Assembly (NCBI GenBank): GCA_018821925.1
Contig: JAHJLF010000016.1
Coordinates: forward strand, 19,255-83,254
Direction of reading: 5' to 3'
Source of the DNA: Candidatus Edwardsbacteria bacterium
GTDB lineage: Bacteria > Edwardsbacteria > AC1 > EtOH8
Length of the DNA stretch: 64,000 nt
Shown: positions 47,334 through 54,819 of the stretch, piece after piece
Layout of the letters: every line of letters starts with the position of its first letter
How positions within the stretch are numbered: position 1 is the first letter of the stretch
Translations under genes and position numbers: made by a program
The notes under the pieces: model-generated
The model's input: only the letters and a program-made list of their open reading frames with translations
Databases searched by the model: none
Told to the model about the DNA's origin: nothing

Positions 47334-47798
47334 CTATAAACCGGCACCTTTAAGCACCATTTCCAACCCTTTCACATCTTCCTCGCTGAAAGAACCCAGC
47401 TCTCCGCTGTCCAGGTCCAGCACATAGAGACACTCCCCGTCCTTTTCCAATACCGGCACCACCACTTCGGAAAGGTTGTTGGGGTCGCAGACGATATGTT
47501 CTCCGCCCAAAGCATGAACGTCGGCCACCACCTGGGCCTTTCTTTCCTTCCAGGCCTTGCCGCAAACCCCGTGCAGTCCGATGGGAGAACAGGCCGGTTT
47601 GGGCTGGCGGCAGGCCAGCAGCATTTCCTTCTTATCGTCGGTGATCTTATAGAACCCCACCCAGGCCAGGCCCTTTTCTTTCAATCCCTCCCATAAAATA
47701 TTGGTGACCGTTTCCATCTTTTGTTCCGCCGATCCCAGGTCCTTTGCCGCCAACCCGGCGGCTTCGGCCATTTTTGAATAGTTCCGAAGGTGTTTCAT
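47334..47798 (-). CDS. msrC: Free methionine-(R)-sulfoxide reductase (GAF-domain fRMsr)
   Basis: WVGFY...LLACRQ...GVCGKAW...VVADVHALGGEHIVCDPNNLSEVVVPV matches the fRMsr Cys triad context. Confidence 0.7.
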   Translation of the reverse strand: MKHLRNYSKMAEAAGLAAKDLGSAEQKMETVTNILWEGLKEKGLAWVGFYKITDDKKEMLLACRQPKPACSPIGLHGVCGKAWKERKAQVVADVHALGGEHIVCDPNNLSEVVVPVLEKDGECLYVLDLDSGELGSFSEEDVKGLEMVLKGAGL

Positions 47799-47833
47799 TT
47801 AAGCCTCTCCAAATATTAGTTTGACCTCTTGCC

Positions 47834-49000
47834 TCAGAACAACCAGCCATAGATCAGGCCGGTGATGGTGGACATGATGACGACCAGGATTATGTAAACC
47901 ATGGTTTTTTTAGTCCCCATAATACTGCGAATTACCAGCATCGAAGGCAGGCTCAATGCCGGGCCGGCCAGAAGCAATGCCAATGCCGGTCCTTTTCCCA
48001 TGCCCGACCCCATCAGTCCCTGCAAAATGGGAACTTCGGTGAGAGTGGCAAAATACATAAAAGCTCCGGCGATGGAGGCGAAAAAGTTGGCAAACAGGCT
48101 GTTGCCGCCCACCAGTCGGACGACCCATTCATTCGGGATAAGAGCCTGCTGGCCGGGCCGTCCCAACAGGAATCCGGCCACCATCACCCCGCCCAAAAGC
48201 AGCGGAAATATCTGTTTGGCAAAAATCCAGGTGCTGTCCTTCCACATCGTCAGCTCGTCGCGGGAAAACCATTTCCAAAGAATGAACGCCAAGGAGATCA
48301 ACAGCGCGCCGGTTATATACCATTTTACCTGAAAGATGACAGTCCAGAAAGAAACCGACGCTCCCGGCGCCCAGTTGGCAAATATCAAAATGCCAACCAT
48401 AACGGCAAAATATATTACTGTCTGCCAAAGCGGTCTGGCGGCAGGGGTTTCACCGGTTTCAACGAAACCGCCGTTCTCGTGGCGCCGGGCCTCCTCTTTA
48501 CGGAAAATAAAATGCATCAAAAGACCTATGATCACCGAGAACACAACGGCCCCCACCGCCCGGGCGATGCCCATCTCCAGACCTAGAATTCTTGCAGTTA
48601 AAATAATGGCCAGCACATTGATGGCCGGGCCGGAATACAAAAAGGCCGTGGCCGGCCCGATGCCCGCCCCCTTGGAATAGATGCCGGCGAACAGCGGCAG
48701 CACGGTGCAAGAGCAAACTGCCAGGATCGTTCCCGAAACCGAAGCCACGGTATAGGCGACCATCTTTTTGGCACCTGCGCCCAGATAGCGGATCACCGAG
48801 CCCTGGCTGATGAAATTGGCGATGGCTCCGGCAATGAAAAAGGCCGGCACCAAACACAGGATAACGTGTTTCTGGGCGTAGTCCTGTGTCATTAAGAAAG
48901 CCTCCATAATGGAAGCCTGCATCCGGGGATTGCTCCAGGGAATAAAATAGGCGGCCAGGAAAAGACCAATCAAGGTTAAAAGTTTATTGCGCTCTTTCAT
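47834..49000 (-). CDS. DUF318/ArsP-type permease (PF03773-like)
   Basis: Start taken at MKERNKLLTL (388 aa). TILAVCSCTVLPLF Cys motif typical of the family. Paired with a thioredoxin_3 gene nearby, as is common. Confidence 0.65.
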   Translation of the reverse strand: MKERNKLLTLIGLFLAAYFIPWSNPRMQASIMEAFLMTQDYAQKHVILCLVPAFFIAGAIANFISQGSVIRYLGAGAKKMVAYTVASVSGTILAVCSCTVLPLFAGIYSKGAGIGPATAFLYSGPAINVLAIILTARILGLEMGIARAVGAVVFSVIIGLLMHFIFRKEEARRHENGGFVETGETPAARPLWQTVIYFAVMVGILIFANWAPGASVSFWTVIFQVKWYITGALLISLAFILWKWFSRDELTMWKDSTWIFAKQIFPLLLGGVMVAGFLLGRPGQQALIPNEWVVRLVGGNSLFANFFASIAGAFMYFATLTEVPILQGLMGSGMGKGPALALLLAGPALSLPSMLVIRSIMGTKKTMVYIILVVIMSTITGLIYGWLF

Positions 49001-49008
49001 TATATTGC

Positions 49009-49707
49009 CTATCTTGCCGTGATAATCATATACACCCCGCCCAGGATCACCAAAACGCCGCAGACGATCTTGACGATGGCCGTACCTTTTGACTTTTCCG
49101 TCCAATTCAGATAATGCTGGATGATCTCGGTAAAAGTCCCGGCCAGCACCAGCACCAAGCAGTGCCCGATGCCATAAGCCAATAAAAGACCTGCTCCGTA
49201 AAGAGGATTGGTGGACGCCGTGCGGAAGGTGACCGCCAGCATCGGGGCCATATAGGCAAAAGTGCATGGCCCCAAGGCAATTCCGAATATCAACCCCAGA
49301 ACAAAAGCAGCCAGTAAACCTTTCCGCTTGTATCCCGAGGCATTAGCCCCGGCCCAGGGCATGGGGATCAGGCCGATCAGGTGCAGACCGACCAAAAAGA
49401 AGATGACCGCTACAAAATAATTGCCCCAGCGGCCGATATCGCCCATCATCCGTCCCAGGGCCGCGGTGATTACGCCGATGACTCCGATGGTAAGTAATAT
49501 TCCGACCCCGAACAGCAGGGAGATTGCGAATGCCCGCTTGGTGGAGATCCGGCCCTGCTCATCCACAAAGCCCACGATCAGCGGGATGCTGGCCAGATGG
49601 CAGGGGCTGAGGATGATGCTGAGGATGCCCCATAAAAACGAGGCCGCCAGGGCGATCAGCGGAGCGCCCTCAACGGCGTGGGATAAATTAATGAAGAGCT
49701 GTTCCAT
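49009..49707 (-). CDS. ccdA: Cytochrome c-type biogenesis protein CcdA / DsbD transmembrane-domain family
   Basis: Six TM helices. Cys in TM1 (LSPCHLASIPL) and in TM4 (LGPCTFAYMAPML). Confidence 0.7.
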   Translation of the reverse strand: MEQLFINLSHAVEGAPLIALAASFLWGILSIILSPCHLASIPLIVGFVDEQGRISTKRAFAISLLFGVGILLTIGVIGVITAALGRMMGDIGRWGNYFVAVIFFLVGLHLIGLIPMPWAGANASGYKRKGLLAAFVLGLIFGIALGPCTFAYMAPMLAVTFRTASTNPLYGAGLLLAYGIGHCLVLVLAGTFTEIIQHYLNWTEKSKGTAIVKIVCGVLVILGGVYMIITAR

Positions 49708-50189
49708 TATTTCTTAAGCTGGTAGCCCAGCTCTTTCCATTTGGCCAGGATATCCTCTTTGGAATAAAAGCCCTCGTGCCGGAACAGTTCCTTGCCCTCC
49801 GGGCTGTAAAATATCTGAGTGGGTATCACTCTTACTTTATATTTGCTTCCTTCATCCGGATTTTTCCAGACATCGATGAATACCACATCCATCTTGCCCT
49901 TGTATTCCTTTTCCAGTTCCTCCAGGATCGGCGCCATCATTTTACAGGGGATGCATTTACTGGCGCCCAGATCCACCAGCTTGGGTATTTTGACGGTCTT
50001 TGGTTTGGCGCTGTCCGCTTTGGCCTCCGGTGTTTTATTGATGGCCGGTACGGCACTGGTTTTTGCCTGCGTTTTCACGGCAAGCGTGTCCTTGGTTTGG
50101 GGTGCCGGTTTAGCTCCCATAGCCCATAATGGGCTTACTGCAAAGCAGAACAGGGGTATCGATAACATACCGATAAGAATTCTCTTCAT
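49707..50189 (-). CDS. Secreted thioredoxin-family protein (TlpA-like)
   Basis: Signal peptide. CIPC active site (SKCIPCKMMAP). Confidence 0.7.
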   Translation of the reverse strand: MKRILIGMLSIPLFCFAVSPLWAMGAKPAPQTKDTLAVKTQAKTSAVPAINKTPEAKADSAKPKTVKIPKLVDLGASKCIPCKMMAPILEELEKEYKGKMDVVFIDVWKNPDEGSKYKVRVIPTQIFYSPEGKELFRHEGFYSKEDILAKWKELGYQLKK

Positions 50190-50250
50190 TGTTTCCTCTT
50201 TGAAAATTAAATATATCCGTTTGAATCCGTAAAAATCCGTTCCATCTTTA

Positions 50251-54441: not shown

Positions 54442-54467
54442 AAAACAACCCCTCTGATTTTATTTGC

Positions 54468-54746
54468 TCACCATTTGCAAATACTGACCAGTTCGTTGAG
54501 CAACGATAAGAATTTTCTGCTGTCCTTGCTTTTATGCAGACGATAATGAACCCACTTGCCCTGGCGGCGGTCGTCAATCAGCCCGGCCTCCTTGAGGATC
54601 GACAGGTGCCGGGAGATGCGGGACTGGCCCATCTTAAGAGCCTCCATCAGCTGGCAGACGCACAATTCCCCGCCCTCCAGCAGTTTGAGGATACTCAATC
54701 TTGTCGGGTCGCCCAGGGCCTTGAAAGTTTTTACGGTCTGTTTCAT
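54468..54746 (-). CDS. arsR: ArsR/SmtB-family metalloregulator with As(III)-type CVC site
   Basis: KALGDPTRLSILKLLEGGELCVCQLMEAL...QSRISRHLSILKEAGLI (wHTH plus ELCVC metal site). Confidence 0.85.
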   Translation of the reverse strand: MKQTVKTFKALGDPTRLSILKLLEGGELCVCQLMEALKMGQSRISRHLSILKEAGLIDDRRQGKWVHYRLHKSKDSRKFLSLLNELVSICKW

Positions 54747-54758
54747 ATCTTCCTTAAT

Positions 54759-54797
54759 TTCCCCTCTCCGCAGCGGGGAGGGGAAGGGGTGGGGTTA
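54759..54797 (+). repeat. CCCCTCTCC-GCAGC-GGGGAGGGG hairpin plus AAGGGGTGGGGTTA tail (family copy H)
   Basis: Immediately upstream of arsR on the promoter side. Confidence 0.5.
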
Positions 54798-54799
54798 TC

Positions 54800-54819
54800 A
54801 TATCAATATATCTTGATAT
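54800..54819 (-). promoter_or_regulatory. ATATCAA-N6-TTGATAT inverted repeat upstream of arsR; candidate ArsR operator
   Basis: Perfect 7-bp arms, about 55 nt upstream of the arsR start codon on the minus strand. Confidence 0.35.

Follow-up and report, generated by a model that had tools for sequence, protein, structure and literature searches.

Mercury-methylation genes hgcAB within an ArsR-headed metal(loid)-resistance gene cluster of Candidatus Edwardsbacteria, at a site occupied by arsM or a small ferredoxin gene in relatives

The hgcAB locus and its source lineage

The stretch of DNA analyzed here (the window, 64,000 nt) derives from a Candidatus Edwardsbacteria bacterium (GCA_018821925.1, contig JAHJLF010000016.1, positions 19,255–83,254 of the forward strand) and carries predicted mercury-methylation genes, hgcA and hgcB, inside a cluster of eleven minus-strand genes at 47334–54746, in which neighbors lie no more than 87 nt apart. 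According to the open reading frame (ORF) list and profile searches, the genes run in the order arsR, acr3, rhodanese-like gene, hgcA, hgcB, cation diffusion facilitator (CDF) exporter gene, Thioredoxin_3 gene, exported thioredoxin gene, ccdA, ArsP_1 permease gene, and a GAF gene of the free methionine-R-sulfoxide reductase (fRMsr) type. The spacers in gene order measure 26, 18, 10, 10, 69, 19, 61, −1, 8, and 35 nt, where the value of 69 nt between hgcB and the CDF gene applies to a GTG start and becomes 87 nt if the CDF gene begins at ATG, as the gene callers choose, and the value of −1 nt denotes the overlap of the exported-thioredoxin stop with the ccdA start as TAATG. GC content is even over the eleven genes (0.48–0.56). 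The exact contig occurs in SRR6514730 and SRR10598174. The exact HgcA protein is also present, with identical gene order, in Logan-assembled contigs, and its nearest named relatives belong to candidate division TA06 (79%) and Candidatus Edwardsbacteria (70%). Searches of the whole window with Rfam at gathering thresholds and with a tRNA scan gave zero matches, so no riboswitch or integration-site tRNA accounts for the locus.

An earlier note on this DNA had described hgcAB as part of an arsenic, metal, and thiol-redox operon headed by arsR. Its eleven co-directional, closely spaced genes are borne out in the order given by the ORF list and profile searches, and hgcAB is indeed physically embedded among genes for metal(loid) efflux and thiol redox, in a long cluster with arsR at its head. 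The motifs that it quoted, ELCVC, GVNVWCAAGKGTF, two CX2CX2CX3CP clusters, the CC tail of HgcB, and NCSCN...DSCCD, were all found in the translations. The permease gene was correctly identified, but its start in the ORF list (49267) is replaced by one at about 49000.

Identity of hgcA and hgcB

51816–52952, minus strand: hgcA, corrinoid protein, 378 aa; NF040863, 416.6 bits versus a cut-off of 275
51518–51805, minus strand: hgcB, 2x[4Fe-4S] ferredoxin, 95 aa; NF040864, 118.4 bits versus a cut-off of 99

Both products pass the equivalog models of their families in the profile check that the earlier note had suggested, and the cap-helix Cys context on which its identification of HgcA hinged is exactly present. 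The sequence GVNVWCAAGKGTF occupies residues 122–134 of HgcA and includes the cap helix NVWCAAGK at residues 124–131, a string that is identical in 116 of 120 HgcA homologues. A Kyte-Doolittle scan, used in place of a dedicated topology predictor, indicates about five hydrophobic segments at residues 229–377, corresponding to the C-terminal membrane domain. HgcB, whose gene begins 10 nt after hgcA, carries the cluster motifs CKGCGRCVQVCP and CIECGACRRNCP (CX2CX2CX3CP; C18–C28 and C48–C58) in its translation, followed by Cys71 and by the tail SSCCSSGDCSCD with C86–C87, C92, and C94; the vicinal Cys pair is not the end of the protein but is followed by SSGDCSCD. Judged on these profile scores and motifs, the window carries genuine mercury-methylation genes, and HgcAB should, by family membership, methylate Hg(II). 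That the HgcA-like protein is instead a paralogue of the corrinoid iron-sulfur protein (CFeSP), or a relative of the HgcAB-like fusion proteins, and does not methylate mercury is highly improbable. Pfam alone detects only a CdhD domain in HgcA (47 bits), and older database names of its relatives read 'acetyl-CoA synthase subunit gamma', which would fit such a paralogue; the fusion model NF043039 (201.2 versus 285) and the CFeSP gamma-subunit model NF003195 (73.9 versus 306), however, both stay below their cut-offs, and the exact cap helix, the membrane domain, and the bona fide HgcB directly downstream argue against it.

The Cys-rich N-terminus of HgcA was regarded in the earlier note as an extra feature. 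It is real but not extra: it is the N-terminal extension known for the family, which bears CC or, in selenoproteins, CU (Cys-Sec) (Haft and Gwadz, 2022). The window protein has DSCCDPAGK at residues 17–25, a variant of CCCGPAAK, and CC is found there in 72 of 116 homologues. The two closest HgcA relatives, P0001 and P0002 (91 and 89% identical), have lost the CC dipeptide (DSCAGP and DSSAGP versus DSCCDP) and kept NCSCN, and the N-terminal CC may be dispensable in this sub-lineage.

A conserved chromosomal site with an exchangeable slot

On the far side of arsR lie xth, a gene for a 277-aa protein, a PAS-GAF gene, and serS. The closest genome by flanking genes is Edwardsbacteria RIFOXYD12_FULL_50_11 (locus L087), with identities of 88% for Xth, 87% for the 277-aa protein, 91% for PAS-GAF, and 95% for SerS. 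In a TA06 genome (GCA_016208585, locus L083), the order is unchanged and the identities are 82% for xth, 58–63% for PAS-GAF, and 84% for serS; no homologue of the 277-aa protein was found in L083. Because the flanks are alike and in one order in L083 and L087, the locus occupies a conserved chromosomal site of the lineage. The 277-aa protein of the window (55803–56636, plus strand, between xth and the PAS-GAF gene) has no Pfam or NCBIfam match.

At this site, the slot between the rhodanese-like gene and the CDF exporter gene, which holds hgcAB in the window, differs in content between close relatives. The operon of L087 reads arsR-acr3-rhod-X-CDF-arsR-fdx-trx3-trx-ccdA-arsP-OsmC, in which X, replacing hgcAB, encodes ArsM (NF008823, 353 bits versus 263). 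A second census, of metagenome loci anchored on the rhodanese-like protein (n = 80), revealed a second arsM version in L089 and a third state of the slot, a ferredoxin of about 83 aa, in L091, L092, L094, L095, and L097. The slot ferredoxin combines two cluster motifs with a Cys-rich tail that terminates in CC, and its best family match is HgcB at 29 bits, far under the cut-off. The CDF gene invariably follows the variable slot in the TA06/Edwardsbacteria lineage. The ArsR proteins of the slot versions are orthologous, and a palindrome is common to all three.

54800–54819, no strand assigned: palindrome ATATCAAGATATATTGATAT, 20 bp, putative ArsR operator, overlapping the promoter matches upstream of arsR

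This palindrome is unique in the window, where 0 chance matches are expected, and its form ATATCA-N8-TGATAT is found upstream of arsR in L083 (hgcAB), L087 and L098 (arsM), and L097 (ferredoxin).

Elsewhere in the TA06/Edwardsbacteria group, one gene set is kept together with its order permuted. Locus L085 has acr3-rhod-hgcAB-CDF-trx3-trx-trx-ccdA-arsP, L086 has arsR-acr3-fdx-trx3-trx-trx-ccdA-arsP-arsC-rhod-hgcA-hgcB-CDF, and L083 has arsR-acr3-..-DsbD_TM-rhod-hgcAB-CDF, while the gene table of a more distant contig, P0017, gives arsR-arsP-trx3-trx-ccdA-hgcA-hgcB-MsrB, with an MsrB unrelated to the fRMsr of the window. A comparable alternation appears in Bacteroidota-like operons, where the place between arsC and acr3 holds arsM (L120 and others), hgcAB (L119, L142, and L165), or both (L135), as in rhod-arsC-arsM-acr3 versus rhod-..-arsC-hgcA-hgcB-acr3; the gene identities of L119, L120, and L135 were confirmed separately. 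In L135 and L057, hgcAB and arsM stand together in one operon. Over the rhodanese-anchored census, mutual exclusivity of hgcA and arsM was not significant (1/10 versus 18/70, Fisher p = 0.44). We read hgcAB as a probable exchangeable cargo of ars operons, in the place that arsM otherwise takes.

The reasons why microbes carry hgcAB, and how its expression is controlled, are open questions that bear on the prediction of methylmercury production. The window provides a clean case from the little-studied Edwardsbacteria/TA06 lineage, with hgcAB deep in an ArsR-headed operon, and its relatives form a natural experiment, in which one site with one ArsR palindrome has a slot with hgcAB, arsM, or a small ferredoxin. 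This makes the proposed link to arsenic directly testable.

Small ferredoxin-like proteins of 80–99 aa recur in the ars operons of the lineage (L095, 2065–2316; L092, 1468–1767; L087, 12570–12812; L086, 1646–1903). All have two cluster motifs, their tails end in ...ECSCNCGGVGSSCC, ...GCGCDCK, or ...DCGCGCNCGDDC, and HgcB is their best or leading NCBIfam match at 23–30 bits versus a cut-off of 99. One type of these proteins occupies the exact hgcAB slot.

Linkage of hgcAB and ars genes in other genomes

The frequency of the linkage was assessed in 80 species-representative genomes with the closest HgcA relatives, whose hgcA flanks were searched with the window proteins. An ars-type neighbor of any kind was found at 48 of the 80 loci. 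arsR occurs at 35 loci, in 32 of which it lies within 5 kb on the same strand; acr3 was found at 26, low-molecular-weight arsC at 22, Trx_3 at nine, ArsP at six, CcdA and thioredoxin at four each, and arsM close to hgcAB at only one. Recurring arrangements include arsR-acr3-hgcA-hgcB-trx3-trx-ccdA (L009) and arsR-arsC-hgcA-hgcB-acr3 (several Bacteroidales). Published accounts agree: McDaniel et al. (2020, Fig. 6) show acr3, arsC, arsM, and arsR flanking hgcAB in metagenome-assembled genomes, Gionfriddo et al. (2020, 2022) note co-localization with ars genes in Rifle-site genomes, and Zhang et al. (2023) again report hgcAB next to ars genes.

The larger embedding, which the earlier note had presented as a departure from the arsR-hgcAB arrangement of Pseudodesulfovibrio, is thus already published, and more than half of the HgcA loci examined have ars-type neighbors. 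The module of Trx_3, exported thioredoxin, CcdA, and ArsP is also found in ars operons without hgcAB and is therefore no evidence that a thiol relay serves Hg methylation in particular. The window locus belongs to a published kind of locus, to which it adds another lineage and a longer string of genes. With the hgcAB-ars association already described by others, the window taken alone confirms what was known.

The best-studied comparison is the arsR2-hgcA-hgcB locus of Pseudodesulfovibrio mercurii ND132, where arsR2 is co-transcribed with hgcAB, controls hgcAB transcription, and is arsenic-responsive (Goni-Urriza, 2020; Gionfriddo et al., 2022 preprint, AEM 2023). Both loci have an ArsR/SmtB regulator upstream of hgcAB on the same strand. 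In ND132, however, arsR2 is the only ars gene at the locus, and the four-Cys site of its product differs from that of canonical ArsR, whereas the window has the ELCVC pair, acr3 and the rhodanese-like gene between arsR and hgcA, and six genes after hgcB. Operon C of ND132 (arsR-arsP-arsE), which is induced by arsenic along with hgcAB, similarly unites an ArsR-family regulator, an ArsP-family permease, and a Trx_3 'ArsE'; it lies elsewhere in that genome, whereas the corresponding module of the window is in the hgcAB gene string and additionally includes the exported thioredoxin and CcdA. The metagenome loci described previously, including those from the Rifle aquifer, come from diverse uncultured anaerobes and have hgcAB flanked by, or a few ORFs from, arsenic-resistance genes, but the accessible portions of these publications make no mention of the CDF, Trx_3, exported-Trx, CcdA, ArsP, and fRMsr genes, of a rhodanese-like family with Asp in place of the catalytic Cys, or of alternation between hgcAB and arsM at an orthologous site. 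Full texts searched for hgcA together with TA06 or Edwardsbacteria yielded no study of the gene in this lineage.

Some likeness also exists to the SAO (selenocysteine-assisted organometallic) locus (Haft and Gwadz, 2022), which comprises the ArsP-family SaoE, the thioredoxin-like SaoT, and CC/CU motifs shared with HgcA and HgcB. The window permease, however, scores 112 bits versus the SaoE cut-off of 325, and no MerB-like SaoL, ABC transporter, or selenocysteine codon was seen in the window locus. By these comparisons, the window locus is not a member of SAO.

Promoter, operator, and terminator

54797–54854, minus strand: two overlapping sigma-70-like promoter matches, TTGACT-17-TATGAT and TGGACA-18-TATGAT, upstream of arsR
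47292–47320, minus strand: rho-independent terminator with a 12-bp stem and a U-run, 14 nt past the last stop codon

Both promoter matches score 10/12 and are the top two of an 8.5-kb scan, and a TTGACA-type promoter likewise lies upstream of arsR in L083 and L086. The terminator at the other end of the cluster folds at −17.1 kcal/mol (z = −3.4), and one of 200 shuffles folds equally well. Folding of the two longest internal spacers (69/87 nt and 61 nt) gave no terminator-like hairpin (z = +1.07 and +0.70). Terminator-like matches within coding regions, 21 versus 11 expected and none in a spacer, were treated as background.

The rhodanese-like protein

52963–53376, minus strand: rhodanese-like protein, 137 aa; PF00581, 38.6 bits

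The earlier note had called this protein rhodanese-like. The fold is supported, but the protein is not a canonical sulfurtransferase and should not bear that name: where solved rhodanese domains have their catalytic Cys, it has Asp77. D77, C127, and C129 are invariant in 85 family sequences (one sequence is gapped at both Cys columns). The C-terminal tail reads SGSCTCRLKP in the window protein and SGSCxCRL(K/R)P in the family, and the CxC of this tail may bind metal(loid) as a thiolate.

The family is compact, with 84 database clusters from TA06/Edwardsbacteria and Bacteroidota (L088, L101, L120, L131, and others), and no curated model names it. Its genes lie nearly always within ars operons, beside arsC, arsM, acr3, or hgcAB. 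Among the 80 metagenome loci of the second census, 60 have ars-type neighbors, and the majority of these are without hgcAB, which points to an accessory protein of ars operons rather than a partner specific to HgcAB. This Asp-for-Cys, CxC-tailed family and the slot interchange at the conserved site appear to be new; literature searches found no description of hgcAB, arsM, and a ferredoxin interchanging at one orthologous, identically regulated site.

Other genes of the operon

54468–54746, minus strand: arsR, ArsR/SmtB repressor, 92 aa; PF01022 (HTH_5), 76 bits; NF033788, 104 versus a cut-off of 55
53395–54441, minus strand: acr3, arsenite efflux permease, 348 aa; TIGR00832, 449.1 versus a cut-off of 282.8
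50504–51430 (ATG start) or 51448 (GTG start), minus strand: CDF exporter, 308 aa from ATG; TIGR01297, 302 versus 82
50251–50484, minus strand: Thioredoxin_3 of the MTH895-ArsE family, 77 aa, CPKC; PF13192, 97 bits; TIGR00412, 107 versus 62
49707–50189, minus strand: exported thioredoxin, 160 aa, CIPC; PF00085, 57 bits; signal-like hydrophobic segment at residues 1–26
49009–49707, minus strand: CcdA/DsbD_TM membrane thiol-disulfide transporter, 232 aa, two Pro-Cys motifs; PF02683, 50 bits
47834–49000, minus strand: ArsP_1 permease, 388 aa (gene callers agree); PF03773, 249.7 bits versus 32.3
47334–47798, minus strand: fRMsr-type GAF protein, 154 aa; GAF_2, 34 bits, and homology to structures in the Protein Data Bank (PDB)

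ArsR carries the ELCVC Cys pair in the string GELCVCQL, which is the same in the orthologues of L083, L086, and L087; the third Cys of R773 is missing from the window protein. The CDF exporter is rich in His at its N-terminus and bears the tail CTEC..C..C at its C-terminus, and it passes the CDF superfamily model only, the ZitB equivalog NF002923 lying out of reach (280.5 versus 408). For the CcdA-like protein, an assignment as an ArsG arsenical permease was rejected; the ArsG model gives no match to the window protein and a weak one to the longer DsbD_TM protein of L083 (38.7 bits versus a cut-off of 200).

The translation of the ArsP_1 permease contains the membrane motif AVCSCTVLP with an intramembrane Cys pair, the role of which is known from Campylobacter jejuni ArsP. 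Characterized ArsP-family permeases are methylarsenite exporters. Membership of the window permease in the SaoE or SO_0444 families was rejected, the scores (112 versus 325 and 113 versus 300) being far under the cut-offs. The GAF protein matches zero NCBIfam models. It is homologous to solved fRMsr structures (3ksf, 4e-20; 3mmh, 2e-17; 1vhm (YebR), 4e-16; 1f5m, 6e-16), of which 3mmh is named a Met-R-sulfoxide reductase, and it retains all three fRMsr Cys residues, in PAC, GVCG, and HIVCD. The operon of P0017 ends with MsrB/SelR and that of the window with a GAF-type fRMsr, which are two unrelated methionine-sulfoxide reductases. That both occur in operons of one kind suggests that such operons are truly linked in function to the oxidation of methionine or thiols.

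Proposed mechanism and alternatives

The eleven genes probably form a composite ars-type metal(loid)-resistance operon, most likely expressed from one ArsR-repressed promoter. In the proposed scheme, ArsR would occupy the palindrome at 54800–54819 and repress the promoter until As(III) or another thiophilic metal(loid) binds the Cys pair of its ELCVC thiolate site and frees it. Arsenite efflux by Acr3 and divalent-cation efflux by the CDF exporter would then be expressed together with the Cys-tailed rhodanese-like accessory protein and the HgcA/HgcB corrinoid methyltransferase pair. Disulfides may be reduced in the cytoplasm by the ArsE-like Trx_3 and in the periplasm by the exported thioredoxin fed by CcdA, with the ArsP-family permease and repair of oxidized methionine by fRMsr also co-expressed. 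hgcAB is one exchangeable cassette of this operon, its slot in close relatives being taken by arsM or the small HgcB-like ferredoxin. The analysis shows what the genes are, how they are laid out, that synteny and palindrome are conserved, and that the cassettes are exchanged; co-transcription, the response to As(III), Hg(II) as the substrate, and hand-off between the products are parts of the scheme that we infer.

The promoter, the palindrome, the terminator, the hairpin-free spacers, and the TAATG overlap are explained most simply by a single transcription unit, and hgcAB may be co-regulated by As(III). Several findings weigh against this reading. The promoter scan as a whole is at the level of chance, with nine matches versus 7.2 expected. 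In L087, a second arsR precedes fdx-trx3-trx-ccdA-arsP, L083 lacks this module, and the hgcB-CDF spacer of L083 is 196 nt; since the modules are separable in relatives, internal promoters are plausible. On the subfamily model for arsenical-operon repressors (PRK10141), ArsR reaches 88.5 bits versus a cut-off of 97, and its effector could be a soft metal other than As(III). Deletion of hgcAB in ND132 left As(III) resistance unreduced (Gionfriddo et al. preprint). The cluster could instead consist of several neighboring units, such as arsR-acr3-rhod-hgcAB, CDF-trx3, and trxS-ccdA-arsP-fRMsr, each with a weak promoter, and we regard this arrangement as somewhat doubtful. To the same degree doubtful is its corollary that hgcAB is co-regulated with arsR and acr3 only and not with the thiol-redox and permease genes. 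Both long spacers coincide exactly with the borders of these modules, and the trx3-trx-ccdA-arsP module, besides following its own arsR in L087 and being missing from L083, stands upstream of hgcAB in L086 and is widespread without hgcAB. Neither long spacer, however, holds a terminator-like hairpin or a coding-strand promoter match, and the sole strong terminator lies past the eleventh gene; read-through and internal promoters can, moreover, coexist.

One proposal, quite unlikely in our estimation, is that in this genomic context HgcAB is the functional counterpart of ArsM, a corrinoid-dependent methylase for As(III) or another metalloid, with Hg(II) methylation as a side reaction and ArsP as exporter of the product. 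hgcAB and arsM take up one slot of an orthologous locus in genomes whose SerS proteins are 95% identical, and the Bacteroidota-like operons show the same alternative; yet the shared slot may mean just that both are accessory cargo of ars operons. The scarcity of arsM at HgcA-anchored loci would suit a substitution, but the exclusivity of the two genes falls short of significance in the rhodanese-anchored census, and the operons of L135 and L057 with both speak against simple redundancy. The methylarsenite exporters of the ArsP family would offer a route out for such a product, and what HgcAB does natively is still under discussion in the literature. Against the proposal, neither mono- nor dimethylarsenicals were formed by P. 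mercurii ND132, and loss of hgcAB did not make this strain more sensitive to As(III).

A broader version is also unlikely in our view. It holds that hgcAB is a mobile ars-operon cassette interchangeable with arsM and selected for methylation of thiophilic metal(loid)s in ArsR-controlled detoxification and export, with the ArsP permease, the CxC rhodanese-like protein, and the Cys-tailed ferredoxins delivering the substrate and exporting the product. If true, it would point to definite candidates for a methylmercury exporter and for the native function of HgcAB, which has long been sought. The locus nominates the ArsP-family permease, the Asp-for-Cys, CxC-tailed rhodanese-like protein, and the CDF exporter as candidate partner proteins.

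Surrounding genes of the window

Directly past the operon terminator and on the strand of the operon, a 433-aa transglutaminase-core protein is encoded (45915–47216, minus strand), with promoter-like sites of its own at 47240–47271. A methyltransferase at 40385–41203 was considered as a second ArsM and rejected, its sole match being weak and BioC-like. Farther away, two adjoining minus-strand genes encode GatD (23891–25276; TIGR02153, 501 bits versus a cut-off of 324) and GatE (25363–27330; NF003107, 461 versus 456; TIGR00134, 388 versus 320). GatD and GatE constitute a Glu-tRNA(Gln) amidotransferase that is regarded as archaeal. Apart from gatD-gatE, the window is bacterial, with a peptidoglycan transglycosylase, sigma-70-like promoters, and Edwardsbacteria synteny.

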